Below are positions 6,787-60,546 of a stretch of DNA of 64,000 bases, one piece after another. Position numbers and translations under genes: made by a program. The stretch is from Chthoniobacterales bacterium. Lineage in GTDB: Bacteria; Verrucomicrobiota; Verrucomicrobiia; Chthoniobacterales; UBA6821. The notes under the pieces are model-generated. The model saw nothing but the letters and a program-made list of their open reading frames with translations. It did not search any database and was not told the origin of the DNA. Where the stretch lies: assembly GCA_049314455.1 (NCBI GenBank), contig JBMOFC010000001.1, forward strand, positions 16,301-80,300, given 5' to 3'. Each line of letters begins with the position of its first letter. Position 1 is the first letter of the stretch.

Positions 6787-6885
6787 ATTGTGGGGTAAGG
6801 AATAAAAAACCTAGCCCGCCGGCGTACACTAGCTTTTACAGCTTTCTACATAAAAAAATCTTAACATTTTTCGTGAAAAATAGAT

Positions 6886-8622
6886 ATGCACCCGGAACAA
6901 TTAAAATTCGATAAAAAGTTTCTGCAAGACTTGTGGAATTTATTAAAGCCCTATTGGGTTTCCGAAGAGAAAAAATTGGCTTGGGTCTTGTTATTCCTGT
7001 TAATGCTTTGTGTCGTGTGTGAAGTGACCGCAGGAATTGGTTTTAACTATTTTTATAAATTTTTTTATGATGCGCTGCAGTCATTCGATACACATAAAAT
7101 TATTAATTCTTTTTATTATTTTGTAGCCGTTCGTGCGCTCTTTACAGCAGCTGTAGCTGCTACTGTTTTTCTGAGTGGAACGCTGAGCATTCGTTGGCAG
7201 CGATGGTTAACACAATATTACCTTCATCGCTGGCTTCAGGAGCATACCCATTATCGCCTGCAGTTTTTAAGCCAGAAGATAGATAATCCTGACCAACGTA
7301 TTACCGAAGACCTACAAAAATTTACCGAACTGACATTGCGGCTCTTATTTGGTCCTTACATGCTCATTCAGCAACTTCTCTATCTTGTTTCCTTTAGTGT
7401 GATTCTATGGAATCTTTCTAAAAATTTTCCACTCCAAATAGGAAGACATAGCTTTCTCATTCCTGGTTACCTGCTCTGGATTGCCTTATTTTATGGGGCT
7501 TTTGGAGTGGTTGTGATTGTTCAGCTTGGGAAAAAACTCTCTTTTCTAGATTATCTCCAACAACGCCTTAATGCAGATTTTCGCTTTAGCCTTATTAGAA
7601 TGAGGGAGTCGAGTGAGCAGGTTTCTTTTAGTAGAGGAGAGCCTATGGAAAATAAAAAATTTCGTTACTTTTTTAACCTTATTTTTCACAATTTCTTAAA
7701 CATTGTTTCATTAAATACGCGTCTCGCTTTTTTTAATCGATGTTATGACTATCTTTCCTATGCGATTGGATTTGCTGTTTGTATTCCTGCCTATTTGGGC
7801 AAGCTTGTTGGTCTTGGAATGGTGATGCAGACTTCCAGCGCTTATAGTTTTGTGGTGGGAAGTATTTCACTATTTTTAGAAGAGTTTCAAAGTTTCTCTG
7901 ATTGGCGTTCGGTCATTTATCGCTTAACGGAGTTCCGTCATTCCATGGAGAGTTTGCCAACTAGCGTGGAGCAAAAAATTATTATTAGAAAACAAGAGGT
8001 TCCTTTTATTCTGGTTTCTAACCTGCAGCTTGCCTGGCCAGATGGGAAAAAATTACCGCGCAACATCCAGTGGAAAATTGCGTTAGGAGAAAAAATTTTA
8101 CTTCAAGGCCCTTCTGGCTCTGGCAAAAGCACCTTGTTAAGAGCCATGGCTGGAATTTGGATGTATGGCACAGGGGAAATTATTCTTCCCAAGAATGCTT
8201 CTATTTTATTTCTTCCCCAAAAAACCTATTTTCCGCTCGGTTCTTTTAAAGAGCTATTGAGTTACCCTCATGATTCAAACGAAGAGGAGAGAATCGATGA
8301 AGTTTTGAAGCTTTGCTTATTAGAAAAATTCAAGCCGTATCTTCATGATGAAAAAAGTTGGACGCATCAACTTTCTTTAGGCGAGCAGCAACTCTTAGCT
8401 TTTGCACGTATTTTTTATGCGAAGCCTGACATTCTTTTTCTTGATGAAGCGACTGCTAGCCTTGATGAAGCCACTGAGTTTCAGCTTTATGAAAATTTGA
8501 AACTCTTTTTACCCAAGGTAACATTGATTAGCGTTGGCCATCGCAAAACGCTTCTGCAATTTCACGAGAAGGTGGTTGATTTAGATCAATTGTCCTCAAA
8601 CAATAGAATTCATGAATATTGA
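6886..8622 (+). CDS. Fused TMD-NBD ABC transporter, YddA/BacA(Rv1819c)/BclA-like (ABCD-type)
   Basis: PYWVSEEK, IDNPDQRITED, ADFRFSLIRMRESSEQ, Walker A GPSGSGKST, LSLGEQQ, ILFLDEAT, SVGHR. Confidence 0.9.
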   Translation: MHPEQLKFDKKFLQDLWNLLKPYWVSEEKKLAWVLLFLLMLCVVCEVTAGIGFNYFYKFFYDALQSFDTHKIINSFYYFVAVRALFTAAVAATVFLSGTLSIRWQRWLTQYYLHRWLQEHTHYRLQFLSQKIDNPDQRITEDLQKFTELTLRLLFGPYMLIQQLLYLVSFSVILWNLSKNFPLQIGRHSFLIPGYLLWIALFYGAFGVVVIVQLGKKLSFLDYLQQRLNADFRFSLIRMRESSEQVSFSRGEPMENKKFRYFFNLIFHNFLNIVSLNTRLAFFNRCYDYLSYAIGFAVCIPAYLGKLVGLGMVMQTSSAYSFVVGSISLFLEEFQSFSDWRSVIYRLTEFRHSMESLPTSVEQKIIIRKQEVPFILVSNLQLAWPDGKKLPRNIQWKIALGEKILLQGPSGSGKSTLLRAMAGIWMYGTGEIILPKNASILFLPQKTYFPLGSFKELLSYPHDSNEEERIDEVLKLCLLEKFKPYLHDEKSWTHQLSLGEQQLLAFARIFYAKPDILFLDEATASLDEATEFQLYENLKLFLPKVTLISVGHRKTLLQFHEKVVDLDQLSSNNRIHEY

Positions 8623-12681: not shown

Positions 12682-14799
12682 ATGAATGAATTTTTAGAAC
12701 AATTTCAAACTTGGATTACGCGTTCTAAGAAGTTTGGTGATTTTTATATAGCATTCCTCATTGTTGCTATTATTGCCCTGTTCATTCTGCCTGTTCCCTC
12801 ATGGCTGCTGGACACATTGATTTCGCTCAACCTTACGATTTCTATCGTCATGCTAATGATGGCGCTTTATGTCCCCAATGTGTTGGCTTTTTCAACATTT
12901 CCAAGTTTGCTCTTGATTACGACGCTGTTTCGATTGTCGCTCAATATTACTTCGACACGCATGATTCTTCTCGATGGATACGCAGGAGAAATTATTTATG
13001 CGTTCGGAAATTTTGTGGTGGGAGGTAATTTTGTGGTGGGTGTCGTGGTTTGGATGATTCTACTCGTGGTTCAATTTATTGTGGTGACTAAAGGTGCAGA
13101 GCGTGTTGCAGAAGTCGCTGCTCGTTTCACCCTCGATGCTATGCCGGGTAAACAAATGAGTATTGATGCCGATATGCGAGCTGGTGTGATTGATATTAAA
13201 GAAGCACAAAAACGACGTCACAATGTAGAAAAAGAGAGTCAAGTCTTCGGTTCGATGGATGGTGCCATGAAGTTCGTGAAGGGAGATGCGATTGCGACAT
13301 TAATTATTGTCTCTATCAATATCATTGCTGGAATTACTATTGGGATTTTGCAGAAAAGAATGCAGCTAGGAGCAGCTGTTCAAACATATTCTATTTTGTC
13401 CATCGGAGATGCTTTGGTTTCTCAGATCCCTGGATTACTGATTACGATTACCGCAGGTATTATTGTAACACGTGTTGGCTCTGAGGAAAAAACGGGACTC
13501 GGATCAGATATTTTTGGTCAAGTGCTAGCGATTCCTAAAGCATTGCTGATTGCAGGAACTATTTTACTGTTTTTTGCTATTGTTCCAGGATTTCCAAAAA
13601 TTCAATTTGGATTTTTGTCCATCATCGTTCTTGTGCTCGGTTATATGCTCGAACGTGGTCCCCTACCATTATTAAAAAAGGGGGGTTCTTTATTGCTTTC
13701 TCCTGGCGCTAAAAAAGCACCAGCAGCTCCTGGGGAGTCTCCAGCTGAGGATGGGAAAGAGGCTTCCCATGAAGAAGATTTTTCGATCACTGTTCCTGTC
13801 TTGTTGGAAGTAGATGCTGCCATCCAAGAACTCATTTCTCCAGATGCCCTCAATACGGAGCTCGTTCAAGTCAGGCGTGCACTTTATCACGACTTAGGTG
13901 TCCCTTTCCCTGGAATTCATTTGCGATTTAATGAGAATCTTAAAAAAGGACAATACCAACTCTTGCTACAAGAAGTGCCAATGTCCTCTGGAATTCTTCG
14001 GCCAGATTTTTTCTATGTTCGCGAAAGTCAAGAACACCTGTTGGCCTTCCATATTCCTTTTGAACCTGTCGAGTCTCCTCCTGATCAAATTCCTGCCGTT
14101 TGGGTTCCTGTTGCACAACAAGAATTACTTCAGCAAATTGGCCTCGCTGGAATGGATTCCTCGAAGTTGTTAAGTTTTCATATTTCTCTGGTGCTCAAAA
14201 AATATGCCGCTGATTTTATCGGTCTTCAAGAAACCAGAACGCTTCTTTCTCAAATGGAAGCAGAAAATGCAGAGGTTGTTCGCGAAGTCCAACGTGTTTT
14301 GCCTCCTACAAAAATCGCCGAAGTTTTGCAAAGGCTGGTTCAAGAAGAAATTTCTGTTCGAAATTTACGTACAATTTTTCAAGCGCTTATTGAATGGGCT
14401 CCCAAAGAAAAAGATGTGTTGTTGCTCACAGAATATGTACGCATCGCGCTGCGTCGTTACATAAGCTACCACTTCAGCGGCGGTAGAAATGTGCTTGTGG
14501 CCTACATTTTAGAGCCAAGTGCAGAAGAACAAATTAGAAAATCGATTCGACAAACCTCTGCAGGAAGTTTTCTAGCCATGGATCCTGTCATGAGTAAAAA
14601 ACTCATCGATGCCGTGAAACAGCAGGTTGGTGATATCGCTCACAAAGAGCGGCCTCCTGTTTTAATTTCCTCTATGGATGTACGGCGGTATATGAAAAAA
14701 CTTATTGAACTCGATATTCCTCAATTGACTGTTCTCTCACACCAAGAATTAACTGAAGAAATCAATATACAACCATTAGGTCGTATTAGTATTAATTAA
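12682..14799 (+). CDS. sctV: T3SS major export gate SctV (LcrD/FlhA family)
   Basis: GAERVAEVAARFTLDAMPGKQMSIDAD, GSMDGAMKFVKGDA, LVQEEISVRN, VLSHQEL. Confidence 0.98.
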   Translation: MNEFLEQFQTWITRSKKFGDFYIAFLIVAIIALFILPVPSWLLDTLISLNLTISIVMLMMALYVPNVLAFSTFPSLLLITTLFRLSLNITSTRMILLDGYAGEIIYAFGNFVVGGNFVVGVVVWMILLVVQFIVVTKGAERVAEVAARFTLDAMPGKQMSIDADMRAGVIDIKEAQKRRHNVEKESQVFGSMDGAMKFVKGDAIATLIIVSINIIAGITIGILQKRMQLGAAVQTYSILSIGDALVSQIPGLLITITAGIIVTRVGSEEKTGLGSDIFGQVLAIPKALLIAGTILLFFAIVPGFPKIQFGFLSIIVLVLGYMLERGPLPLLKKGGSLLLSPGAKKAPAAPGESPAEDGKEASHEEDFSITVPVLLEVDAAIQELISPDALNTELVQVRRALYHDLGVPFPGIHLRFNENLKKGQYQLLLQEVPMSSGILRPDFFYVRESQEHLLAFHIPFEPVESPPDQIPAVWVPVAQQELLQQIGLAGMDSSKLLSFHISLVLKKYAADFIGLQETRTLLSQMEAENAEVVREVQRVLPPTKIAEVLQRLVQEEISVRNLRTIFQALIEWAPKEKDVLLLTEYVRIALRRYISYHFSGGRNVLVAYILEPSAEEQIRKSIRQTSAGSFLAMDPVMSKKLIDAVKQQVGDIAHKERPPVLISSMDVRRYMKKLIELDIPQLTVLSHQELTEEINIQPLGRISIN

Positions 14800-14942
14800 G
14801 AGCGTGTTTGAAAAAGTCTCAAATCGCGCATTATCGTGTTGCTGCGGTGCTCGCATTCTCGAGTGTTTCCACATGCACTGCGGGTCTACGCTCCTCACTC
14901 CTGGTACTGCATCGATTTTAGTTCTTTTTCAAGCACACTCTT
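14798..14942. mobile_element. RPE-like MITE overlapping the sctV stop codon
   Basis: TIRs AAGAGCGTGTTTGAAAAAG...CTTTTTCAAGCACACTCTT; core GCTGCGGTGCTCGC...CACTGCGGGTCTACGCTCCTC. Confidence 0.8.
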
Positions 14943-16888: not shown

Positions 16889-16978
16889 TGGTGGAGGGGG
16901 TGGGATTCGAACCCACGGAGGCTTTAACACCTCTCCGGTTTTCAAGACCGGTGCAATCAACCGCTCTACCACCCCTCC
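16889..16978 (-). tRNA. tRNA-Ser(TGA)
   Basis: Minus strand reads GGAGGGGTGG...CCGGT-CTTGAAA-ACCGG, long variable arm, GGTTCGAATCC, CCCCTCCACCA with encoded CCA. Confidence 0.97.
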
Positions 16979-17014
16979 AAAATTTCATTTTTAAGTGACC
17001 TCCTGTTGCGAACT

Positions 17015-17090
17015 GCTGTGTCGCTGCGGTGCTCAACTCCTTACGTATTTACTATACGCTCGTCTTCTGCGCTCCTCGACTCCTTGCATT
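17015..17090. repeat. Degenerate RPE-like core remnant
   Basis: GCTGCGGTGCTCAACTCCTTACGTATTTACTATACGCTCG..CTGCGCTCCTCGA matches the core at 54463-54517; no clear TIRs. Confidence 0.65.
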
Positions 17091-17230
17091 ACATTATTCC
17101 GGTGAACTCGAAAATCGAACGAAAGGGTGTTTAGTTAAGCTTGAAGGAGGGCTTTCTGTCAAAGTTTTTGAGCGATTTACTAAACAACTTGACGGTGTCA
17201 TCAGTTCTTTGCTTTTCTCTGCCCCCACTT

Positions 17231-33100: not shown

Positions 33101-35431
33101 TCTGTGGTCGTTGCCTCAAATATCATCATTGGTGCTTCCAGTACTTCTTCGGACAACAGTCTCAACTTTGGTGCGCTCGGTGGGAGCGACAGTGCTGGAA
33201 GCTTAGTAGCCTCAAGCATTATCTTTGGGAATGGAAGTAATGGTGCTATCAACTTCAACCAAACAAATAACCTCACCCTGACTAGCACCATTACTGGTTC
33301 TGGTTCTCTCAATCAACTTGGAAGAGGTACGACAATAATCTCCAGTAGCAATAACTACAACGGCACAACACTCATTCAAAATGGAACCTTAGTTGCAGCC
33401 AATCAGAGTGCCCTCGGCACAAGTGGAGTTATTCTTCAAGGAACGGCAACGACCAAGGGCATACTCTCCTTAAGCAACAACCTCACTATTGAGAGCCTTA
33501 CCTGGGGAAGCAATGGTATCCTAGCTCCGGACCCAGGAGTAACAGCTCTCACGGTTACGGGAACTATGAGTAATTCCGGAGGAGGAGGGACTTTTAAATT
33601 CGACCCACTGTCCGCTGGGAATGCAACCAACATTCTCATTAATTTTGGAAGCCAGAGTGGCTTTACAAGTGATAGCTATAGCATTTCTGGATTCAGCGGC
33701 TACACCTTTATCCAAACAGCTAGTAACGTTTCTGGATATCTCTCGACCAATGCGGATCTCGTGGTTTCAGATAACTACACCATCAATAACAATACGGCTC
33801 ACGTAAGCAGCCTCACCATTGCTCCTAGGGGTAGTGTTAATGGAACAGGAAACCTTAATGCTAACTTAATCAATGAAGGCCATCTAGCGCCTGGCGTTCC
33901 CACAGGTACATTAACAGTCAATGGTAGTTTCACCTGCTATCCTAAAGGAGTCCTACAAATTAACGTTGCTAGTCCCACTAGCTATGGACAACTCCAAGTC
34001 AATGGGAACGTGAACCTCGGAGGCACCTTGGAAGTAGCGCCAATAGGAAACATCCCACTTTTTTATGGTGAACAACTCACCTTCCTCAATTCCACTGGTC
34101 CCATCAAAGGAAACTTCAACACCGTTCAAATTGATCAGTCAGGCTGTCGCGGACGTGTTCAAATCATAGGAGATCCCCAAGCGATCGTCCTCATCGCTCC
34201 GACAAGCTACACCCTAGTAGCCCAAAATCAAAACCAGATGAACGTTGCTGCGGCCTTGGACAGCCTCATCCCAGCAACCAGTTCCGATGCACAGACCGTT
34301 TCCGCAGCACTTGATTTCTTAACCGCGGAGCAGTATCCAGCTGCCTTCGAACAAATCATGCCCACCCTCTACCAATCGCTCTCCACCATTGCCTTTAACA
34401 TCGACAACGCCCAGAACCAAGAAATCATCCAACGCCTCTGGGGAGTCCGCTTAGCCTCTGCGCAAGAGGCAGGGGGTAACTTCCAAATGAGCGGCTTTAC
34501 TGACAACACAGCATGCCTCCAAGAAAAAGATAAAAAAGAAATCAAAAATGACATCATGCGCCCTGCGCCTAACAACCATTGGGGAATGTTCGTGGATGGA
34601 AACGGAATCTTCGCTCAAGCCAACAGCGCCAACAACCTCTCCACCTACAACGCCGAGAGCGGTGGCGTCACCACAGGACTCTCTTACCGCTGGAACAAAA
34701 CAGTCACTACCGGAATCTACGCTGGCTACCAAGGAGTTTACAGCAAATACAACGCAGGAAGCACCCTCATTGACGACCAAGTGAATTTCGGACTCTTCGG
34801 TACCTACGGAGAAGAAAATGGGCAAGGACTCTTTATTGATGGCCTTGCTGGAGGAGCCTACGACAATTACCAAATGAACCGTAACATTTCCTTTGGCAGC
34901 GGAGACTATGCTCTTAACCGCACCGCCATGGGAGCCCCAGGAGCAGGGGAACTCAACACCATGGTTGCTACCGGCTACGACCTCAAACGAGGCAACTTTA
35001 CCTTCGGCCCACTCTCCAGCATCCAATACCAATATTTTGGGGCTCAATCCTTCAGTGAAACAGGCGCTCAAGCACTCAACCTAAACGTCAATGCCTGGGA
35101 TACCAGCAGCCTGATCTTCAGCCTTGGAAGCCATGTTGCCTACAACTGGCAAGCCACCAAAAACCTTCTGGTCATTCCTCAAATTTCCTTAAGCTGGCAA
35201 CATCAATTTTTAGAAAATCCTTATACCATCAACAGCACCTTGAATTACGGAAACAGTCCTACCTTTGCCAATACCAGCAGCGTCCCACTTCGCGACACCC
35301 TCTACACCGGCATTGGCGTTACGATGGAATTTGCGAAACGCTGGGATACCTCCTTCTTCTACAATGCCGCTGCCGGCAACCAAGATGTCGTCAGCCAAAA
35401 TATCTTCTGGAGTTTGGGGTATAAGTTTTAG
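27200..35431 (+). CDS. Giant autotransporter (type Va), 2743 aa, beta-helical repeat passenger
   Basis: Signal peptide; dozens of SNNSVLVTGxxSxWSN/LxVGxxGxGNxLxISNGG repeats; two NQxGxGTTI..NxYxGxTxIxxGTL repeats; C-terminal beta-barrel ending SLGYKF. Confidence 0.95.
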   Translation: MGKNQVSLLLCVLICTLFLARASIGQSLYVGTNSTPETNIFSSGTTTYDSIYIGTISTASNNSLQISNTGTTLIDTNINTGIFIGYYGSANNMTIAAGATQQNYGYAWIGGNYADASSSTASNNSVLVTGSSSSWFNGQDLTVGVYGAGNSLIISNGGSVNNNHYAWVGGNAYGTNGDYNGDANSATSSNNNVVVTGNGSRWNIGYDLTIGVYGSGNTMNILDGAQVAVQGNGWIGGNGVYPNSDSTNSSTASNNTVVVSGSNSLWSNGGDLIVGLYGPNNSLIISNGGVVRDNYGWIGGNSSYGDPQSSTSSNNSIVITGNGSMWSNGQDISIGIYGGGNTVTISDGGQLQDVNGWIGGGWTNNGITSSNNSVLVTGSNSIWNNAGMLTIGSYTAGNSLVISNGGAVIVSGDGVIGGNENDTNNNLSSTAASNSVLVTGSNSSWNIQGSLIVGAYGAGNTMTIADGGQVTNQYGRAWIGGEVYGVSNPASVTSSNNSVVVTGSNSTWYAGSILTIGCYSSGNSLMIQNGGTVFSTADSDDNYQSPWGTWIGGNAFGDAPNSYMASNNSVLVSGAGSLWSNGGDIGIGVYGTGNTMVVSNGGHVMNAGSGWIGGDGYNANDTSSTASNNSVLVTGLDSLWSNAGNLTVGVYGAGNSLVISSNAQVFSSNGVIGLYATSLSNSVTVNSGGLWSNSGILSIGSSSNAGSGSLLVDGSGSRVLAQSIAINNGTLQIGSNADSAALGNAIMTLNNSSQVRSAATLNLLASFTMDTLNWGYGYVALFSSNASISTSGSLAVNTLNVISGGGIFDFSYYSASGTNVVLSASNGISNTFQAYSYGTLDTNWSFSNNGNTLEAIFTQATYSSSDLYVGSNTSGNVVDFYTGTNSYDNTYVGYATNASSNVLNVANSGTVLSNSGNLYVGDEGSGNIMSIFNGGQVFDAQGSIGFTNSSSSNSVFVSGAGSLWSNSDDLTIGVYGAGNSLTISNGGQVFSSNGWIGGNQNHQDMNTCSNNLVLVTGTDSLWSNGGALNVGFIGGNNQLIISEGGEVIVDNNSADSFIGNGSSNNTVLVTDTNSVWSNGGNLYIGGAGVGNQLIISNGGTVYIGGTDASILGNGGGSSNNMAVVTGTNSLWSNAGDLSVGYNGSSNQLIVSNGGVVISPNGYVGNVGNSNSAIITGSNSLWSNSGSLTVGVYGAGNSLIISNGGQVYAGQFLNGGNIWIGGDGVNSDASSFTASNNNVLVTGQGSILVSYGDITVGVYGAGNTLTISDGGLVESYSNIWIGGNGVGEGGDPNSFTASNNSVVVSGTNSEVFSLVALENLGVGLYGAGNSLNISNGGAVLFGGSNNTISYALLIGSGSTASNNSVFVTGSNSALGSYSSNSYIYVGLDGSGNSLTLADGGVVASAFLSIGNNVGSSNNSLNIGSFGGTDTAGLLLIYDTISFGSGSNGAINFNQTDIFTLTSPISGNGLVNQFGTGTTILAGSNSYGGITTINQGTLEATSTNALGTSEVILGGAGATNTNSPGTLLLATNLTIASLVWGSNGWLAPNTTTNPPLELLTIEGFMSNAGGGGSMYFGNYSTVGTSTVIGFGSQSGFSVGDFQAVYSNGVVDTNWSFDLTSSTVQAIFTQSIDTNTDLYVGSNTSGNVVDLYTAGSYNYNNTYIGYTTNASNNILNVANVGVVLNNTNDLYVGDGGAGNTMNIFNGGVINDTNGHIGFEGTSSNNSVYVTGGATWNNSFSLTVGENGSGNTLVISNGTVNAPTLFIGGNEAGATSSNNTVIVTGSNAVLNDNYRIKVGFGNGNTLIAANGATINAGSFFAIGEGAGSSSNTVILTGSNTTLTSALNLVVGDFDGSYNKLIIAQGAHASVTANVYDSCVGVGGYSNTALVTDLGSAWILTDQLGVGAGGSFSILTISNGGIVSDLTGYLGSNGGTNNSVLVTGTGSLWSNNSNLIIGVDASGNSVTIADGASVVVASNIIIGASSTSSDNSLNFGALGGSDSAGSLVASSIIFGNGSNGAINFNQTNNLTLTSTITGSGSLNQLGRGTTIISSSNNYNGTTLIQNGTLVAANQSALGTSGVILQGTATTKGILSLSNNLTIESLTWGSNGILAPDPGVTALTVTGTMSNSGGGGTFKFDPLSAGNATNILINFGSQSGFTSDSYSISGFSGYTFIQTASNVSGYLSTNADLVVSDNYTINNNTAHVSSLTIAPRGSVNGTGNLNANLINEGHLAPGVPTGTLTVNGSFTCYPKGVLQINVASPTSYGQLQVNGNVNLGGTLEVAPIGNIPLFYGEQLTFLNSTGPIKGNFNTVQIDQSGCRGRVQIIGDPQAIVLIAPTSYTLVAQNQNQMNVAAALDSLIPATSSDAQTVSAALDFLTAEQYPAAFEQIMPTLYQSLSTIAFNIDNAQNQEIIQRLWGVRLASAQEAGGNFQMSGFTDNTACLQEKDKKEIKNDIMRPAPNNHWGMFVDGNGIFAQANSANNLSTYNAESGGVTTGLSYRWNKTVTTGIYAGYQGVYSKYNAGSTLIDDQVNFGLFGTYGEENGQGLFIDGLAGGAYDNYQMNRNISFGSGDYALNRTAMGAPGAGELNTMVATGYDLKRGNFTFGPLSSIQYQYFGAQSFSETGAQALNLNVNAWDTSSLIFSLGSHVAYNWQATKNLLVIPQISLSWQHQFLENPYTINSTLNYGNSPTFANTSSVPLRDTLYTGIGVTMEFAKRWDTSFFYNAAAGNQDVVSQNIFWSLGYKF

Positions 35432-35528
35432 AACCTGTCTTCAAAATCTACTGCAGCTACGATGGGCTGCGTCCCGCCGCTGGCTCTTTCTCCATCATCA
35501 GCCGTAGCAATTTTGAAAATAGGTTCTT
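35430..35528. mobile_element. Internally deleted RPE-like MITE (obgE subfamily); overlaps the autotransporter stop
   Basis: TIRs AGAACCTGTCTTCAAAAT...ATTTTGAAAATAGGTTCT; its reverse complement aligns with both ends of 56913-57058. Confidence 0.85.
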
Positions 35529-44699: not shown

Positions 44700-44884
44700 G
44701 GTTGGAAAGGCTAAAGCCTAACACGTATAAGAAAAGAAAATTGATATTGTTAGAAAATCTCTATTTTCATTTTTAACTGATAAACTTTTAACTGATGAAT
44801 GTTAGGAACGTTTGTTGGTTCTTTTTGAGACTATAGTGTGTTGAATCGATAAGGGCACGCTATAAGCTGACCTCATTTATCCGC

Positions 44885-45100
44885 GCATTGTGGCATCACT
44901 GCGGTGCGTCATTTCCTCGCGAAGGAGGGAATCGAGTTCTCGAATATCTCTTATACACTGCGGGTCTGCGCTCCTCGTTTGACTCGCTCGCTCCCGCTCA
45001 CCTCGCCCTTGCTGGGCTGCCTAACGGCAGTCTGCCCAACCGACTCCCGTCGGGTCGTTTTCTGACACTGCACACAACTACAATATTTTTTAAAATGCAC
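44885..45100. mobile_element. Composite RPE-like element (left TIR lost) with nested REP hairpin
   Basis: Closely similar over most of its length to 50709-50953; nested CGTCATTTCCTCGCGAAGGAGGGAATC at 44907-44933. Confidence 0.85.
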
Positions 45101-50708: not shown

Positions 50709-50953
50709 TAGAGCATTTTAAAAAATTCTGTAGCCGCACCTTGTGGTGTCACTCCGAACGTCATCCCCGCGAAGGCGGGGATCGCGTTCTCGAGTATCGC
50801 TGGCTACACTGCGGGTCTGCGCTCCTCGTTTGACTCGCTTTGCGAAGCTCACCTCGCCCTGGCTGGTCTGCCTAACGGCAGTCTGCCCGACCGACTCCCG
50901 TCGGGTCGTGTTCTGACAATGCCATCGACTACAGAATTTTTTTAAACGCTCTA
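50709..50953. mobile_element. Composite RPE-like MITE with nested REP hairpin
   Basis: TIRs TAGAGCATTTTAAAAAATTCTGTAG...CTACAGAATTTTTTTAAACGCTCTA; nested CGTCATCCCCGCGAAGGCGGGGATC at 50759-50783. Confidence 0.88.
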
Positions 50954-53673: not shown

Positions 53674-54420
53674 ATGAAACCATTAGAAAATCAGGTAGCC
53701 ATTGTCACCGGTGCTGGCCGAGGAATCGGCGAGGCCATTGCTCACCAACTCGCGCTCCAAGGCGCTAAAGTCGCGGTTGTGAGTCGTAGTGAGGCTAATT
53801 CCTCACGCGTGGCAGATGCCTTGAACCAAAAAATAGCAGGAAGTGCCAAAGCCTATGCAGTCGATGTGGCCGATTTTGAGTTGGTCCAAAAAGTCGGAGA
53901 GCAAATCATCATTGATTTTGGACGTGTTGATATTTTAGTCAACAATGCAGGGATCACCCGCGATACGCTGCTCATGCGGATGTCTTCGGAAGATTGGGAT
54001 GCTGTTCTTAACGCCAATCTCAAAGGAGCCTTTAATTTTGTTCGTGCTGTCCTGCGCCCTATGATGAAGGCCCGCTCGGGACGTATCATCAATATTAGTT
54101 CCGTGAGCGGCATCATGGGGAATGCCGGCCAAACCAATTACGCGGCAAGCAAAGCCGGCTTGATTGGCTTTAGCAAAAGCCTTGCTCGTGAAATTGCAAG
54201 TCGCAACATTACCGTCAATGTTGTCGCTCCTGGATTTATCGAAACAGACATGACTGCTGTGCTCAGCGAAGAAATTCAAAAAGCGGTCGTCACTCAAATC
54301 CCTCTAGCACGCTTTGGGAAACCAGATGATATCGCCACTGCCGTCGCCTATCTTGCAGGGCCACATGCGGGCTATATTACCGGGCAGGTATTAGCTATCG
54401 ATGGAGGGATGTCCATGTAA
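53674..54420 (+). CDS. fabG: 3-oxoacyl-ACP reductase
   Basis: TGAGRGIG, NNAGITRD, GNAGQTNYAASK, VAPGFIETDMT. Confidence 0.96.
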   Translation: MKPLENQVAIVTGAGRGIGEAIAHQLALQGAKVAVVSRSEANSSRVADALNQKIAGSAKAYAVDVADFELVQKVGEQIIIDFGRVDILVNNAGITRDTLLMRMSSEDWDAVLNANLKGAFNFVRAVLRPMMKARSGRIINISSVSGIMGNAGQTNYAASKAGLIGFSKSLAREIASRNITVNVVAPGFIETDMTAVLSEEIQKAVVTQIPLARFGKPDDIATAVAYLAGPHAGYITGQVLAIDGGMSM

Positions 54421-54558
54421 CATGGGGTTAAATTCTACTGAGGCTGCGAAGAACCGTGTTGCTGCGGTGCTCGCTCCCTCACGTATTGCTATACGCTCGG
54501 TCCTTGCGCTCCTCGACGTCTTATTCTTCATCAGCCTCAGCGAATTTAACCCCATGTT
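54419..54558. mobile_element. RPE-like MITE overlapping the fabG stop codon
   Basis: TIRs AACATGGGGTTAAATT...AATTTAACCCCATGTT; core GCTGCGGTGCTCGCTCCCTCACGTATTGCTATACGCTCGGTCCTTGCGCTCCTCGA. Confidence 0.9.
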
Positions 54559-54593
54559 GCTGCGAGAAAAGTCAACTTCAACTGGTTGAAGAG

Positions 54594-54656
54594 CGGGTCT
54601 GCGCGCCGTCGCTCCTGCTCCTTCATCAGCATCAGCGAACTTGAAGAGGGTTTTCT
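54594..54656. repeat. Half-copy of the obgE-subfamily MITE amid AACTTCA-type arrays
   Basis: Reverse complement AGAAAACCCTCTTCAAGTTCGCTGATGCTGATGAAGGAGCAGGAGCGACGGCGCGCAG aligns with ~56913-56970. Confidence 0.7.
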
Positions 54657-54837: not shown

Positions 54838-55332
54838 ATGATTCTTTATCTTCTTAGACATGCTGAAGCAGGTCTCAAAACCAAACATGGTGACTCGAAA
54901 CGTGCACTAACGGAAGTTGGAAAACAGCAAGCGATGCGCATGGGTGCATTTTTTCAAAAACATCAGATCCAACTGGAGTTGGTTTTAACAAGCCCATTCT
55001 GTCGAGCAGTGAAGACGATGGAGGCTTTTTTTGAAACAAGTCTTACAGTTCCTTTCCTCGAGGTTCCTTGGATGGCCTCTGGTATGTCGTCCGAGACGGC
55101 ACTGAAAGAGCTTCAAGCTTATAAAAAACTTGAATCGGTGATGCTCGTAGGACATGAGCCTGATTTTAGTCATTTGATTGCAACCATGCTAGGAATGACT
55201 CATGCAGAAAATGTCAACGTTCCTAAAGCGTCCTTGACTGCTATTCAATTAGAAAAAATTGCTTCAGGCACAGGAGTACTTCAGTTCTTGATTCCTGTGG
55301 AGTTAGTCGATGAAAAATTTTTAGCTTCATGA
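54838..55332 (+). CDS. sixA: Phosphohistidine phosphatase
   Basis: LYLLRHAEA, RALT, SPFCRA, LVGHEP. Confidence 0.9.
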   Translation: MILYLLRHAEAGLKTKHGDSKRALTEVGKQQAMRMGAFFQKHQIQLELVLTSPFCRAVKTMEAFFETSLTVPFLEVPWMASGMSSETALKELQAYKKLESVMLVGHEPDFSHLIATMLGMTHAENVNVPKASLTAIQLEKIASGTGVLQFLIPVELVDEKFLAS

Positions 55333-56546
55333 AACTCCTTTTACTCACCAAAGAATATCCTCCTCATATTTACGGTGGAGCAGGGGTGCATGTAGAGTAT
55401 CTCAGTCGCGAGCTTGCTAAATTGATTTCCTTGGAAGTGCGTTGTTTTGGGGAACAGCATCAGAGCACGGAACATTTTTCTGTGCGTGGATTTTCTAGTA
55501 ACGGGCTCTTTTTGGAGTGTGCCAAGCAGTTGCAAAGTCCATTGGATGCGGCTTGGCGAGGGATTCAGTTCAATGCAGTAGGGATTGATGCTGATCTTGT
55601 CCATTGCCATACCTGGTACACCTATCTAGGCGGAATCATGGCAAAACAGCTTTATGGAATTCCACTCGTGGTCACCGTTCATTCTTTAGAGCCCCTACGT
55701 CCTTGGAAACGAGAGCAGTTAGGAGGAGGCTATGATTATTCTTGTTGGATTGAAAAGCAGACACTCACCATGGCAGATGCGGTCATTGCTGTTTCTGAGG
55801 AGACGAAACAAGATATCCTCACTCATTTTAAAATTCCAGAAGAGCGCATTTCTGTGATTCATAATGGTATTGATTTAGAAGAATATTCTAGAAGGCAAGA
55901 TCAGCATTGCTTGAAAAAACATGGGATTAACCCGCAACAGCCTTACATCCTTTTTGTAGGTCGTATCACACGTCAAAAAGGTATCATTCATCTCGTGCAT
56001 GCGATTGAAGAGATGGATCCCGGTTTTCAAATTGTCTTATGCGCAGGTGCTCCCGATACCCCAGAGATTGCTCGTGAAATGAAAATGGCTGTAGCAAAAA
56101 TTCAGGAGCGTCGTCCAGGAGTTATCTGGATTAGTGATATGGTTGAGCATCATGAAATCATTGCGCTCTATTCGGGAGCTGCTGTTTTTGTGTGTCCTTC
56201 GATTTACGAACCTTTTGGAATTATTAATTTGGAAGCGATGGCCTGTGGTGTTCCTGTGGTGGCCTCTGCGGTCGGTGGGATTAAAGAAGTTGTGGTCGAT
56301 GGAGTGACCGGATTTTTAGTCCCCTGTGAGCAGATAGAGGGAGATTCTGATATCTTATATCCAGAAAAATTCGCTCACGATCTTGCTAGTTATGTGAATC
56401 AATTGATGGCAGATCCTATTCTTGCAGCCACGATGGGGGCTGCAGGCCGACTCCGTGCAGAAAAATATTTTTCTTGGGAGAGGATTGCTAAGAAAACAGA
56501 GCGACTTTATGCTCAGGTTCTGAAAGACTCTAGCGATGTTCATTGA
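55329..56546 (+). CDS. glgA: GT4 glycogen synthase / maltose-1-phosphate synthase (actinobacterial GlgA/GlgM type)
   Basis: TKEYPPHIYGGAGVHV, HTWY, HSLEPLRPWKREQLGGGY, GRITRQKG, YEPFGIINLEAMAC. Confidence 0.9.
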   Translation: MKLLLLTKEYPPHIYGGAGVHVEYLSRELAKLISLEVRCFGEQHQSTEHFSVRGFSSNGLFLECAKQLQSPLDAAWRGIQFNAVGIDADLVHCHTWYTYLGGIMAKQLYGIPLVVTVHSLEPLRPWKREQLGGGYDYSCWIEKQTLTMADAVIAVSEETKQDILTHFKIPEERISVIHNGIDLEEYSRRQDQHCLKKHGINPQQPYILFVGRITRQKGIIHLVHAIEEMDPGFQIVLCAGAPDTPEIAREMKMAVAKIQERRPGVIWISDMVEHHEIIALYSGAAVFVCPSIYEPFGIINLEAMACGVPVVASAVGGIKEVVVDGVTGFLVPCEQIEGDSDILYPEKFAHDLASYVNQLMADPILAATMGAAGRLRAEKYFSWERIAKKTERLYAQVLKDSSDVH

Positions 56547-57807
56547 TCGTATTCGTATTCATGCAAAAGCCGGAAAGGGAGGCAATGGTTGTGCTAGCTT
56601 TCGTCGGGAGAAGTTTATTCCTAAAGGTGGCCCAGATGGCGGTGATGGAGGCGATGGAGGAAGTGTGATTCTGAGGGCTAGTACGAATGAAACACAGTTG
56701 GCTTCGTTGTTTTACAAACCAATCTTACGTGCTAAAAATGGAGCTCCCGGGTCGAGTCGTCAAAAACATGGAAAGTCTGCTCCTGACTTAATCATTCCTG
56801 TTCCTGTCGGAACCTTGGTTTATCGTGTGCCTGCACCCCAGGCCTCACCAGCCTTGGAAGAAGAGTTCGAGGCTTCTGAAAAAAAAGAGGATACTTCCTC
56901 CGCTCCAACATCAAAACCTGTTTTCAAAGTCGCTGTGGCTGATGAGGGGGAAGGAGCCGCCGACGTGCAGCGAAGGAGTGTACTTAACGTACTCGATGGA
57001 GAGAGCACCGGCGTGACGCAGTCCATCGCAGTCACAGTAGACTCTGAGAGCAGGTTCTCAGAACCTCGTTCTAAACTAGCCACTCCTGATCCTGACGATT
57101 TAGTAGCCGACTTAGCACAGTCAGGAGAAGAATTTGTCCTTTGCTTAAAAGGGCATGGAGGACGTGGAAACATTCATTTTAAAAGTTCGCGTAATCGTGC
57201 TCCGCGTCGCTTTACAGAAGGAACAGAAGGAGAAGAGGGATGGTTTCTTTTAGAACTCCGCACCATTGCTTTTGCAGGACTGGTCGGATATCCGAATGCT
57301 GGAAAATCAACTTTGCTTCGCGCTCTTTCGGCAGCCCATCCCAAAGTGGCTTCGTATGCTTTTACCACACGCCATCCACATGTTGGTGTTGTCGATTTAG
57401 ACGATTATAAGCACACCACTGTTGCCGACATTCCTGGGCTCATCGAAGGAGCTAGTCATAATCGTGGTCTAGGACATGCTTTTCTAAGACACATCATGCG
57501 TTGTCCCTTTTTACTCTTTGTGCTCGATATGGCTGGCACTGACGACCGCAAGCCATGGAATGACCTCCGTGTTTTAAGAAAAGAAATAGAGCTCTACGAT
57601 CCCGAATTAGCAGCACGTCCCTGGTGTGTGATTGCAAATAAAATGGATTCTCCGGAAGCGGCAAAAAATCTGACTCAATTTCGTAAAAAAAATCCTGACC
57701 TCAAGGTGATTCCTATTTGTGCAGAATTAGGGGAGGGCATAGACGCAGTCAAAAAAATGCTTCAAGAGGAAGTGGCTTCTTCGAATCCCATCGCACTGGA
57801 GGTTTGA
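56536..57807 (+). CDS. obgE: GTPase Obg with an in-frame palindromic insertion
   Basis: FRREKFIPKGGPDGGDGG, GYPNAGKSTL, DIPGLIEGA, NKMD; ~90-aa insert between VPVGTLVYR and LVADL. Confidence 0.97.
   Translation: MFIDRIRIHAKAGKGGNGCASFRREKFIPKGGPDGGDGGDGGSVILRASTNETQLASLFYKPILRAKNGAPGSSRQKHGKSAPDLIIPVPVGTLVYRVPAPQASPALEEEFEASEKKEDTSSAPTSKPVFKVAVADEGEGAADVQRRSVLNVLDGESTGVTQSIAVTVDSESRFSEPRSKLATPDPDDLVADLAQSGEEFVLCLKGHGGRGNIHFKSSRNRAPRRFTEGTEGEEGWFLLELRTIAFAGLVGYPNAGKSTLLRALSAAHPKVASYAFTTRHPHVGVVDLDDYKHTTVADIPGLIEGASHNRGLGHAFLRHIMRCPFLLFVLDMAGTDDRKPWNDLRVLRKEIELYDPELAARPWCVIANKMDSPEAAKNLTQFRKKNPDLKVIPICAELGEGIDAVKKMLQEEVASSNPIALEV
56913..57058. mobile_element. RPE-like MITE inserted in frame in obgE
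   Basis: TIRs AAAACCTGTTTTCAAAGTC...GACTCTGAGAGCAGGTTCT; homologous to the intergenic copy at 35430-35528. Confidence 0.85.
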
Positions 57808-57951: not shown

Positions 57952-60231
57952 CTAAATACCACGCGTCACCGGCCTCATCTGTTTAACACTTTTTTTTGCT
58001 TTTACTTTTTCTTCTTGAATCTTTCTTTCCAATTGAACGATCAATGCAGCACGAAGCTGAAAGCCTGTTTGTACACGAAACAGTATGATGTCTCTAGCGG
58101 CTACTAAAGAGCCTGTGTTGAAATGGCTATCCTTAGTGAAAAGAGGAATCAGTTTTTTAAAAAGAGCATCGATTGCTTTCATTCTTTCCTGATGTTCCTC
58201 AGCACTCGGTTGAGCGCTCTTGAGTTCATCCAGGATGCGTTGGGCCCTTTCTCCGGTGAGATCACTCCAAGCTTTTCTGAAGTTCTGCAATGCAACTTCA
58301 GGAGCAAAAGAGTTCCATGCTTCAGGAACATTCTGCATCGCACGCATCGCACCGAGAGTGCCATGATGAATAGCACCTGCTACAGCAGTTCCTGCCGCGG
58401 CTCCTACAGCAGCCCCTCCAGGACCGCCTACAACATGTCCTGCAGCCTGCCCAACCAAACTTCCGATCTCTCTACCAGTCGACCCCATTAACACCTCGCC
58501 GAGTGCCATATAAATATAAGAAGTAATCCACGTTCGAATAGAAGCATAGTTGAGATAATCACGAAGACCAGAATAAGGCCATCGAGAGTTGATCACATTA
58601 TGAAAAAAAGTATTCCTCTCAGGCTGAAAAATAGCGTCCATAGCGGAGCCTATAAATGCGCCAGTTGCGGCACCATAAAGTAAGCTAGAAGGTATAGATC
58701 CCCAAAGCGCACCAGTATATTCATAATTTTCTCCTAATAGAGCATGCGAGAGTCCTCCAGCCGTTACTCCAAGAAGTGCAGCAGCAAGAGATGCTGCTCC
58801 AATACTAGGAGCATTAGCAACAACACCGGAGGCAAAACCATGAGAAAGAACAGCCACAGAATTCCCCACAGCAGCACTTCCACGACCTATGGTTTCTGCA
58901 AGGTACCAGGGTGCGCTAGCGAGGGCTTGATCAGGATGTTCTAATGCAGTTAGAGCTTCACTCGCCTCCTCTGTTGTTGTATCACCACCTAGAATGTCAC
59001 GACACTGAATTAACAGAGCCCTCTCCTTATCGGTAAAGGGAGCATAGCGCTCTGAGATCTGTTTTAACTCAAATTTGAATGTAACATAAGGGAGAACTAC
59101 CTTTTCTAGGTCAGGGTTTGGAACTACCCTAAAGGAATCATCATTGTAGACATTATTATTGTCTGCCAGTCTCATTATATAAGGGCTAGGAACACAATTT
59201 AATTCATTGAGAATTCCTCCCACCTCTGTACTACGAATATAATCTTGTTCTCTCTCCTTGCGAAAGGTATGTTGTGCTGCTCGAGAGTTCGTGAGTTTCA
59301 ATGGCCCATAAAAGACCATTAATGTTTGATAAAGATGATTTCGGATAACTTTGTTATCTTCAGGAGTAGGAAACTGATCAGGCGACCTGCTCCCATCAAC
59401 ACCTTTCAGATTTACTAGCGTGATAAAAGGAATGGCAGGAGGGGTCTCTCCTTCTTCGCCGCGAGCAGGAAATGTTTTCATTTGAAAAGGAGGATCAACA
59501 TTATTTAAGACAAAACACTCATATAAGTGGTTGTTGTCAGATAAAAATTGATGTTCTTGGAAACTGCCTTCCTCTGCTGGGTCATACTCATTGCTAAAAT
59601 CAAGAGCCATTAAGAGCCTCATTGTATCAGCGTACTCAAACTTTTTAAGCTCACTGAAGATTTGATTAATAACTGGCTTTGCCTCCTGTACGGCTTTTTC
59701 TATTTTTTGGGCTTCTGCTACTACCTCTTCTTGTACTTCTTTGCATTGTGTTTTAAGTTGCTCCACAGGCGTGGCCACTTGGGTTACAGAAGTGGTAATA
59801 GGGCCTGAATTATTAAAGCCTATCGGAGCAACGTTGGCACTCGGACAAACTGATGCCGGGTCAATCGAAGAATGATGACCTCTTAACATGCGAATAACTC
59901 CCTCTAAGCGCTCTCGCGTTAAAGGAGTTCCAATTGTAAATGCAGCGTTTTGTAATAGCTGCTTCCATCCTAATTCTTTCAATCTACTTCTCAGCGCCCC
60001 CATCGATCTGCCCGCCTCCGCAGTCGACACTTCCGTCGGCGTGATTGTGCCATCATGAGGATTGATAATAAAACGCTCAGCCCCTGTAAAGTCATCGAGT
60101 GCTCCTTGCAGAGAGGTGATTAGGTTGCTACGGCTCTGCTCGACACTACCGAAATGATTAATGGTACGGCTAAGTATCTGGTTCGAGGGAGCTGTTGGTC
60201 CTATTCCTATAGTCGTATTATTCACATTCAT
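57952..60231 (-). CDS. Orphan glycine-zipper / coiled-coil protein (~759 aa), candidate T3SS substrate
   Basis: ATG 60231 MNVNNTTIGIGPTAPSNQ; Gly/Ala hydrophobic blocks (GGPGGAAVGAAAGTAVAG); coiled-coil-like regions; no Sec signal evident. Confidence 0.7.
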   Translation of the reverse strand: MNVNNTTIGIGPTAPSNQILSRTINHFGSVEQSRSNLITSLQGALDDFTGAERFIINPHDGTITPTEVSTAEAGRSMGALRSRLKELGWKQLLQNAAFTIGTPLTRERLEGVIRMLRGHHSSIDPASVCPSANVAPIGFNNSGPITTSVTQVATPVEQLKTQCKEVQEEVVAEAQKIEKAVQEAKPVINQIFSELKKFEYADTMRLLMALDFSNEYDPAEEGSFQEHQFLSDNNHLYECFVLNNVDPPFQMKTFPARGEEGETPPAIPFITLVNLKGVDGSRSPDQFPTPEDNKVIRNHLYQTLMVFYGPLKLTNSRAAQHTFRKEREQDYIRSTEVGGILNELNCVPSPYIMRLADNNNVYNDDSFRVVPNPDLEKVVLPYVTFKFELKQISERYAPFTDKERALLIQCRDILGGDTTTEEASEALTALEHPDQALASAPWYLAETIGRGSAAVGNSVAVLSHGFASGVVANAPSIGAASLAAALLGVTAGGLSHALLGENYEYTGALWGSIPSSLLYGAATGAFIGSAMDAIFQPERNTFFHNVINSRWPYSGLRDYLNYASIRTWITSYIYMALGEVLMGSTGREIGSLVGQAAGHVVGGPGGAAVGAAAGTAVAGAIHHGTLGAMRAMQNVPEAWNSFAPEVALQNFRKAWSDLTGERAQRILDELKSAQPSAEEHQERMKAIDALFKKLIPLFTKDSHFNTGSLVAARDIILFRVQTGFQLRAALIVQLERKIQEEKVKAKKSVKQMRPVTRGI

Positions 60232-60546
60232 ACAAACAATGGTTGTAAACTCACGATAAATCTCTTTGGGAGCGAGCTTCAGGAGTTCCTCCAAAAAAGA
60301 TAGGGTATTTGGTTTTGTCGATGCTGTGGGATGGAGCGTCTTTAAAAGAACGCTCTTTCCCAATTCCTTAAGCTGATCAATAGAATGCTAAATAAAAAGC
60401 GGGAGAAGTCTATGGATTTTGTGTTGGAAGGAAGGGGGGCGAATTGACTCAAAAATAAATGAGCACGGTTCAAAAAAGATGCTACTAACATCAATCGTTA
60501 GAAAATGAAGGCTCCAATGACGCGCTTCTCCATGAATGGAGAGGAA

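Follow-up and report, generated by a model that had tools for sequence, protein, structure and literature searches.

A palindromic RPE1-like element in the reading frame of the Obg GTPase gene of a freshwater Chthoniobacterales bacterium

Can a repetitive palindrome settle inside the reading frame of an essential, conserved GTPase gene and leave the protein at work? The question is raised by the gene for Obg (CgtA) in a stretch of 64,000 nucleotides from a Chthoniobacterales genome (assembly GCA_049314455.1, contig JBMOFC010000001.1, positions 16,301 to 80,300; the whole stretch is called the window in the following, and its positions are used throughout). Within a loop of the encoded protein lies a segment of 49 codons that resembles repeats elsewhere in the window. 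A preliminary description, made from the letters of the window, had read this segment as a palindromic element inserted in frame, by a process like that of the Rickettsia palindromic elements (RPEs), in a probable verrucomicrobium. We conclude that the segment is very probably a young, in-frame copy of an RPE1-like MITE (a transposable element of the miniature inverted-repeat type), and that Obg is most likely translated through the insert and still works. The evidence for this comprises membership in a repeat family, a target-site duplication, empty sites in the closest relatives, a restriction of genic copies to particular frames, the location in a loop and the relationship to RPE1.

The insert in Obg and its empty sites

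The genome that holds the window (G000) was compared with 12 other genomes of the same genus (designated by handles such as G005 and G010). Its Obg open reading frame (ORF) scored 381.9 bits on the Obg_CgtA model TIGR02729 (cut-off 280), and a second full Obg was not among the matches listed for G000, the others being a weak GTPase match and an element copy. The gene has gained positions 56914-57060, i.e., 147 nt or exactly 49 codons (residues 127-175). The length, the coordinates, the terminal inverted repeats and the TCA triplets on both sides, as given in the preliminary description, were confirmed by the sequence and by a repeat search, in which the inverted arms were located at 56915-56931 and 57040-57056 (17 nt, 82% complementary). 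The core of the insert is read in the frame designated 'same', the first base of the core being the first base of a codon.

The segment belongs to a repeat family by several measures. Against a covariance model (CM) of the family it scored 123.9 bits (the copy belongs to the seed alignment), an nhmmer search seeded with the Obg copy gave it an E-value of 1.6e-29, and residues 127-173 were matched at E 9.7e-16 by a peptide hidden Markov model (HMM) that was built from 12 other copies within ORFs, with the Obg copy excluded. The similarity of its ends to an intergenic element at 35430-35528, which had been noticed before, is real: over its whole length the Obg block can be aligned to the reverse complement of that copy, which is without about 48 central bases (blastn E 5e-7 and 6e-6). 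The half-copy proposed at 54594-54656 was recovered as well (nhmmer 54593-54648, E 4e-8), and it adjoins a full copy at 54419-54555 that had not been listed.

Obg sequences of 40 relatives were collected by genome search and 30 of them were aligned. The closest relatives of the G000 protein are those of G010 and G005, with 85.8% identity outside the loop. Both have an empty site, in which a single TCA is directly followed by GAR CCT CGC, and at the same point G000 has TCA, 144 nt and TCA again. The precise indel of about 49 residues that a comparison with orthologs had been expected to show is thus present, with nothing between the flanks in the two relatives. Two further genes of G000 gave a similar picture. 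Both inserts in its alanyl-tRNA synthetase (AlaRS) are missing in every one of the 12 other genomes of the genus, and its UvrA insert is absent from G010, G011, G001, and G006. From this pattern of presence and absence it follows that the insertions are, as far as the compared sequences tell, recent and species-specific. Judged by its empty sites, the Obg insertion is likewise young and specific to the lineage of the G000 species.

According to the alignments the same loops are hit repeatedly, Obg in two species and UvrA in two species. The Obg of G004 (77.9% identity) carries its own full copy elsewhere in this loop, flanked on either side by ATT, with a CM score of 121.6 bits and a peptide HMM E-value of 2.5e-18. 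The UvrA of G009 contains a copy in the opposite orientation only a few residues from the site used in G000 (CM match G009:C32:6256-6400, inside the UvrA match 5649-8312). Moreover, the AlaRS of G011 has its own in-frame copy at another site (G011:C48, about 34645-34785; peptide HMM E 9.5e-11).

A strand ending in VPVGTLVYR and a strand starting with VADL enclose a loop of about 90 residues that contains the insert, a placement which the preliminary description had made and which both the alignment and an AlphaFold2 model bear out. All 24 aligned relatives of the order possess this acidic and proline-rich loop without the element, and the alignment of 25 sequences shows no variation in the G1-G4 motifs or in the glycine-rich Obg fold. 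The AlphaFold2 model based on these 25 sequences has a mean predicted local distance difference test (pLDDT) value of 71.8; values below 50 extend across residues 106-179, i.e., the whole loop including the insert, and confidently predicted strands (residues 93-98 and 189-193) flank it. By alignment and model, the element landed in a long, already expanded and probably disordered surface loop of the Obg fold. Throughout the family and the order the loop (residues about 99-186) comprises 35-45 amino acids and varies in length and sequence even without the element, and the Obg loops of G001 and G008 contain further extra segments that are unexplained.

A palindromic repeat family with many in-frame copies

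Iterating the nhmmer search that started from the Obg copy yielded 159 matches at E <= 1e-3 in G000, of which 94 are near full length. At least 15 contigs of G000 end inside family copies, and the family is therefore probably under-counted in the draft. Three size classes were distinguished: 144 nt, 165 nt and a composite class of about 238 nt. The second consists of the 144-nt core and a nested 21-nt palindrome (CCCCGC...GCGGGG type), by which seven codons are added and the frame is kept; this palindrome is found in about 10 of the 24 aligned copies (columns 95-118; e.g., L045:1591-1757 and L055:709-875). The longest class has extra internal hairpins and is represented by 50710-50947 in the window and by about 25 other places in G000, mostly intergenic. 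Many of its copies are near-identical, and the median pairwise identity is 83% (26 aligned).

The alignment of 24 copies folds into a long hairpin, whose outer helix comprises 30 pairs between columns 1-37 and 132-169. Changes on both sides were observed in 23 of these 30 pairs and in 25 of the 39 pairs overall. Paired cells amounted to 92.3% overall vs. 76.7% in 500 shuffles, none of which reached the observed value, and to 32-43% when the partner was slid by one to three columns. The ends of the element therefore co-vary between subfamilies. Four pairs are conserved G-T (G-U) wobbles (20/148, 31/138, 53/69, and 55/67), by which the hairpin of one strand is made superior to that of the complementary strand, and a conserved GTAG is confined to the 3' arm; from the wobble pairs and the one-armed GTAG a built-in polarity of the element can be deduced.

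For the analysis of target-site duplications, model positions 2-145 were used as the core register and 39 well-bounded copies were tested. Identical 3-mers flank the core in 16 of these, and at least two of the three bases match in 29. When the right flanks were permuted among the copies, identical pairs numbered 2.8 on average and 10 at most, and none of 10000 permutations reached 16. The subfamily beginning with GAAC sits in T-N-A (TCA, TTA, TAA, TGA), the subfamily beginning with AGAC in A-N-T (AAT, ATT, AGT). The appearance of one subfamily, in which TA directly precedes GAC, suggested a 2-bp TA duplication; this was rejected, as exact matches are best for 3 bp around a 144-nt core.

The further in-frame copies foreseen for other coding sequences exist in number. 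Within ORFs of at least 200 amino acids lie 27 of 93 full-length copies, while about 81% of the genome is made up of such ORFs. Altogether 38 matches are located wholly inside stop-to-stop ORFs of at least 150 amino acids, and 33 distinct ORFs of at least 200 amino acids hold at least one match; Pfam families were recognised in 29 of these 33 hosts. Among them are the aminoacyl-tRNA synthetases AlaRS (two copies), MetRS, AspRS, ValRS, PheRS-beta and one more class I synthetase, the DNA-related proteins UvrA, a UvrD-like helicase and a PD-(D/E)XK nuclease, and the metabolic enzymes GltB, GcvP, aconitase, SucD, PyrF, AroK, and FolP, in addition to LpxB, UppP, a NuoM-like subunit and more. The odd inserts of 48-56 amino acids in Obg, aminoacyl-tRNA synthetases, UvrA and other core proteins of the genus are thereby explained for annotation.

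The genic copies are restricted in length and frame. Their core length is divisible by three in 25 of the 27 cases vs. 24 of the 66 copies elsewhere, and only two of the six possible frames are used, F0 on the model strand in 13 copies and R1 on the opposite strand in 14. Of the 27 copies, 25 have an open F0 and 23 an open R1; the corresponding numbers for the other four frames are 1, 1, 9, and 6. In the remaining 66 copies, an open F0 occurs six times and an open R1 23 times. Because the unused frame is in most cases open as well, the genic copies derive from subfamilies without stops in either orientation, and a stop-free reading is, on these counts, not merely retained by each copy after landing.

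These observations are best explained by the following course of events. A non-autonomous DNA transposon of the MITE type, whose core is an imperfect palindrome of 144 nt, would have integrated into a TCA of the Obg gene and duplicated these three bases. Since 144 plus 3 makes 147 nt or 49 codons, the downstream frame would be kept whatever the site. The copy would then survive because it is read in a stop-free orientation and phase, one of only two, and because the loop is permissive, being long and probably disordered. Obg is most likely made as a protein of 423 amino acids with 49 extra loop residues and is still functional. The same process has placed at least 26 other full copies in frame in housekeeping genes of G000.

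Relationship to RPE1 and to other mobile elements

The family is narrowly distributed. With the CM it was detected in all 12 other genomes of the genus (8 to at least 77 matches each, the most in G004, G009, and G012), in the sister genus in one genome out of 12 (a single match, E 2e-4) and in none of 16 genomes from other genera of the order. A six-frame search of 401 genomes from the whole phylum with a family peptide profile (E <= 1e-6) gave matches in two genomes, both of this genus, and in none of the 399 genomes from 183 other genera. A tblastn search of plasmid and phage collections with one element peptide remained without a match at E <= 1e-3. The named Obg loci that come closest stem from metagenome-assembled genomes (MAGs) labelled Chthoniobacterales, Verrucomicrobia or Spartobacteria, in agreement with the earlier assignment to a probable verrucomicrobium, and the four sequencing runs in which the sequence was found, none of them listed as RNA, bear the label freshwater metagenome.

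A comparison with RPE models had been suggested and proved informative. The NCBIfam model TIGR01045 ('palindromic element RPE1 domain') has 48 positions and a curated cut-off of 30 bits. It falls on the AlaRS insert (residues 755-789, E 3.2e-6, 27 bits) and on the AspRS insert (residues 82-126, E 0.029). At E <= 1 it matched 5 of 12 peptides read in the 'same' frame (best E 5e-6) and none of 11 read in the 'opp' frame. A six-frame search of G000 gave eight matches at E <= 0.01, all on element copies; a single chance match occurred among 14 control genomes. In the reverse direction, the family peptide profile was run against 5.8 billion proteins and found a protein of a Legionellales MAG (E 1.1e-12), a 'palindromic element RPE1 domain-containing protein' of Legionella norrlandica (E 6.6e-10), a protein of Legionella anisa (E 1.1e-9) and five proteins of the Wolbachia of Folsomia candida (E 1.1e-9 to 7e-5). 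The motifs RLLSKLA (N-terminal), EDSST (central) and AVEFRKKS (C-terminal) are common to the family and these proteins. On TIGR01045 itself, the proteins of L. norrlandica (39.7 bits) and the Legionellales MAG (34.4 bits) lie above the cut-off, those of L. anisa (28.4 bits) and the best Wolbachia protein (27.1 bits) below it. Because the profile finds RPE1-domain proteins and TIGR01045 falls on the inserts, the family is, by its peptide sequence, a distant but real relative of RPE1, i.e., RPE1-like and not a model-defined member. Together with the empty sites, the duplication and the family itself, this link supports what had been proposed at the outset, a palindromic element in frame in Obg and an RPE-like process in a verrucomicrobium.

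In-frame palindromic elements are reportedly also present in Wolbachia, where they are called WPEs. For Rickettsia conorii, RPEs of about 150 bp are described in frame in many genes (passages on RPEs in PMC10969869 and PMC3733652). Like RPE-1 as portrayed there, the present family is a palindrome of about 150 bp with many in-frame copies in unrelated housekeeping genes and no known transposase. Both encode a conserved peptide of about 48 amino acids (48 positions in the RPE1 model, 48 codons in the family core), and the family peptide matches the model over its full length (1-46 or 1-48, E down to 3e-6). In copy number, the 159 matches of G000 with 27 full copies in long ORFs compare with 526 RPEs, 53 of them in genes, in the passage on Rickettsia bellii in PMC1458961. 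Differences from RPE-1 are the host, which is a freshwater Chthoniobacterales genus outside the Rickettsiales, and the scores under the 30-bit cut-off in what is a comparison by peptide. A 3-bp duplication and the use of both orientations, which this family has, are not mentioned in the RPE passages of PMC10969869, PMC3733652, and PMC1458961. The RPE1-domain ORFs of L. norrlandica, L. anisa, the Legionellales MAG and the Wolbachia of F. candida are the nearest named sequence relatives; these records are short stand-alone ORF calls from a different phylum. No published account of palindromic elements that are RPE-like or in frame was found for Verrucomicrobia or Chthoniobacterales in full-text literature searches.

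The element is of a known kind, an RPE1-like, coding-competent MITE, in a new phylum, and at least 27 in-frame hosts, Obg among them, are present in G000. A homologous element acts on the same scale as the RPEs in a different phylum and in a freshwater habitat, with clean empty sites and recent, species-specific insertions. It offers a second, independent system for studying the mechanism by which these elements move, the reasons for their tolerance by proteins and their possible spread between bacteria that share host cells.

Bacterial MITEs such as Correia, ERIC, QMITE and the Anabaena MITEs, as far as they are treated in the passages of PMC10969869, share with the family the small size, the terminal inverted repeats, the target-site duplication, the lack of a transposase gene and occasional in-frame fusions. 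In contrast to MITEs in general, two of its subfamilies reside in frame in essential genes as a rule, and the whole element is palindromic, not just its ends. Repetitive extragenic palindromes (REPs) are 20-40 bp long and extragenic and are not known to duplicate their target. The family resembles REPs and REPINs, in the portion of PMC3733652 that deals with them, in being palindromic and of high copy number, in the conserved GTAG in one arm and in the presence of one gene like those for REP-associated tyrosine transposases (RAYTs) in G000. It differs from them in that RAYT homologs occur in just 8 of the 12 element-bearing genomes of the genus and in many genera without the element.

With terminal inverted repeats and a target-site duplication of a fixed length of 3 bp, the family has the hallmarks of MITEs. 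The fixed duplication, combined with general transposon knowledge, points to a cut-and-paste enzyme of the DDE type acting in trans. Several candidates for such an enzyme were rejected. The RAYT is encoded by the only Y1_Tnp gene (333 aa, contig C71, L171:823-1824, minus strand), and its homologs do not track the element; beyond the eight genomes of the genus they are found in 10 of 16 other genera without the element. Transposases of the IS630 family duplicate TA. The one DDE_3 gene of this type in G000 has no element-like ends nearby (best CM match E 0.34), and the 3-bp duplication does not fit. For transposases of the IS5 and Harbinger types the Pfam families PF01609, PF13586, and PF13359 have no match in G000, which is 97% complete. 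Just downstream of the RAYT-like gene, a near-perfect hairpin of 95 nt with another sequence was observed (L171:719-813), which the CM picks up weakly (E 6e-6), and two neighbouring ORFs contain similar 'SLTP...' peptide strings; this hairpin may represent a second repeat family tied to the RAYT.

It is conceivable, if at present rather doubtful, that RPE1-like elements constitute one cross-phylum lineage of coding-competent transposons that has moved horizontally among Rickettsia, Wolbachia, Legionella and this genus. The length divisible by three, the 3-bp duplication and one stop-free frame per orientation would then be properties of the master copies, kept by selection where protein loops are the only safe landing places in small, gene-dense genomes. 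Such horizontal movement, if it took place, would suggest that the genus shares a eukaryotic host cell, an amoeba or other protist, with such bacteria.

Alternative explanations and neighbouring features

Several observations weigh against a young, translated MITE copy in a functional Obg. The G003 Obg (83.3% identity, slightly more distant than those of G010 and G005) has an insert of 52 amino acids at about the site used in G000, which neither model recognises (no CM match at E <= 1, peptide HMM E about 1); either one old insertion or two may thus have occurred at the site. No family copy reaches the 30-bit cut-off of TIGR01045, the best attaining 27 bits. Folded alone as DNA, the Obg copy is no better than shuffles (z = -1.38), so that the structural signal exists at the family level only. 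At the second AlaRS site exactly 144 nt were added without a duplicated triplet, as judged by six relatives. Near the transposase genes of G000, a draft that is 97% complete and in which, as is common, repeats may be unassembled, no full-length insertion sequence with matching ends was found. This draft is metagenome-derived (1,999,942 bases, 86 contigs). Finally, translation of the insert, retained Obg function and mobilisation in trans by a DDE-type transposase are inferred.

The insert of G003 would be accounted for by a single old insertion before the split of G000 and G003, followed by a clean loss in the lineage of G005 and G010, so that the G000 copy only looks young. The two inserts stand at about the same codon position and a core-like conserved stretch (...CTCGATGG...) appears in the codon alignment. 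The G000 copy, however, attains its 123.9 bits with a family maximum of about 160, while that of G003 escapes both models. In addition, G005 and G010 stand nearer to G000 than does G003 (Obg 85.8 vs. 83.3%, AlaRS 77 and 76 vs. 72%, UvrA 80 vs. 72%), for which reason a scar-free deletion of 147 nt would be needed, and independent insertions into the same loop do occur, as in the Obg of G004 and the UvrA of G009. We therefore regard an old insertion as unlikely. Even less room is left for an origin of the repeat in the Obg loop with subsequent copying outward. Nothing beyond the shared sequence speaks for it, and it is refuted by the empty sites in the closest relatives. Target-site duplications at many loci, the presence of the family in 12 of 12 genomes of the genus irrespective of a copy in their Obg, and the homologs in Legionella and Wolbachia also speak against it; its probability is next to nil.

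With a young MITE copy as the preferred origin, the fate of the insert and of the protein has to be considered. Removal of the 147 nt as intron-like RNA or as an intein-like protein, leaving a normal mature Obg, could draw on the strong hairpin of the family, and nothing direct favors it. At the gathering threshold Rfam recognises a single tRNA in the window and no family that covers the element, the peptide is without intein-like features, and a segment of 69 amino acids around the insert matches no NCBIfam family at E <= 1. An excised (joined) form of Obg was not present among the contigs aligned to the locus. The copies within ORFs are held to stop-free frames and to lengths divisible by three, as translation demands and excision would not, and the homologous RPE1 elements are treated as translated in the passages of PMC10969869. 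Excision is thus very improbable. The same low probability is given to a dying Obg that was inactivated by the insertion in a cell coping by another route: the genome is small (2.0 Mb) with many insertions in essential genes, but the ORF is intact, its motifs are invariant, its score is above the equivalog cut-off, a second Obg is not among the matches listed, and the loop is variable and long in all relatives. A chimera of assembly or binning, in which a repeat copy was wrongly threaded into the Obg contig, was considered because many contigs end inside family copies and the repeat evidently disturbs the assembly. It is hardly credible, as the frame is exact, the flanks are collinear with those of the orthologs and dozens of other in-frame copies share the same anatomy. 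Moreover, two other samples of the same study yielded contigs that span the junctions without a difference, contig X2 record 9 (56387-57027) on the left and contig X3 record 16 (56942-57265) on the right; this support was counted from the two further samples, the likely source sample not being counted.

The features of the Obg locus and the other family members of the window are compiled in Table 1.

Table 1. Positions of the Obg gene, its insert and further copies of the repeat family in the window.
Feature	Position	Strand	Evidence and remarks
Obg/CgtA GTPase gene	56536..57807	+	423 aa; ORF; Pfam GTP1_OBG and MMR_HSR1; TIGR02729
Lineage-specific acidic/proline-rich loop of the Obg fold, residues about 106-186, predicted disordered	56851..57093	+	alignment; AlphaFold2
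Left copy of target-site duplication, TCA (Ser126)	56911..56913	+	single TCA at the empty sites of G010 and G005
Element core, 144 nt = 48 codons, residues 127-174	56914..57057	+	CM, peptide HMM, nhmmer
Right copy of target-site duplication, TCA (Ser175)	57058..57060	+	sequence; comparison with G010 and G005
Left arm of outer helix (terminal inverted repeat)	56913..56949	+	consensus structure, helix 1
Right arm of outer helix (terminal inverted repeat)	57022..57058	+	consensus structure, CM
Full-length non-coding member	14799..14936	-	nhmmer E 8.2e-22
Partial member, model 28-124	17001..17096	-	nhmmer E 3.9e-11
Intergenic member, 99 nt, internal deletion	35430..35528	-	two nhmmer pieces, model 2-52 and 97-146; alignment
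Further member, model 9-119	44881..45095	-	nhmmer E 4.4e-16
Long composite member, about 238 nt	50710..50947	-	nhmmer E 4.8e-25; long-class alignment
Full-length non-coding member	54419..54555	-	nhmmer E 1.2e-22; in the 24-copy alignment
Half-copy, model 8-64, adjoining the copy at 54419-54555	54593..54648	-	nhmmer E 4.1e-8

A tRNA gene (16892-16978, minus strand) lies about 20 bases from the partial copy at 17001-17096. The start of the Obg gene is overlapped by 11 bases by an ORF of 405 amino acids putatively encoding a glycosyltransferase-like protein (55329-56546, plus strand). Directly downstream of Obg and on the other strand, an ORF of 803 amino acids (57952-60363) contains hydrophobic stretches rich in glycine and alanine.

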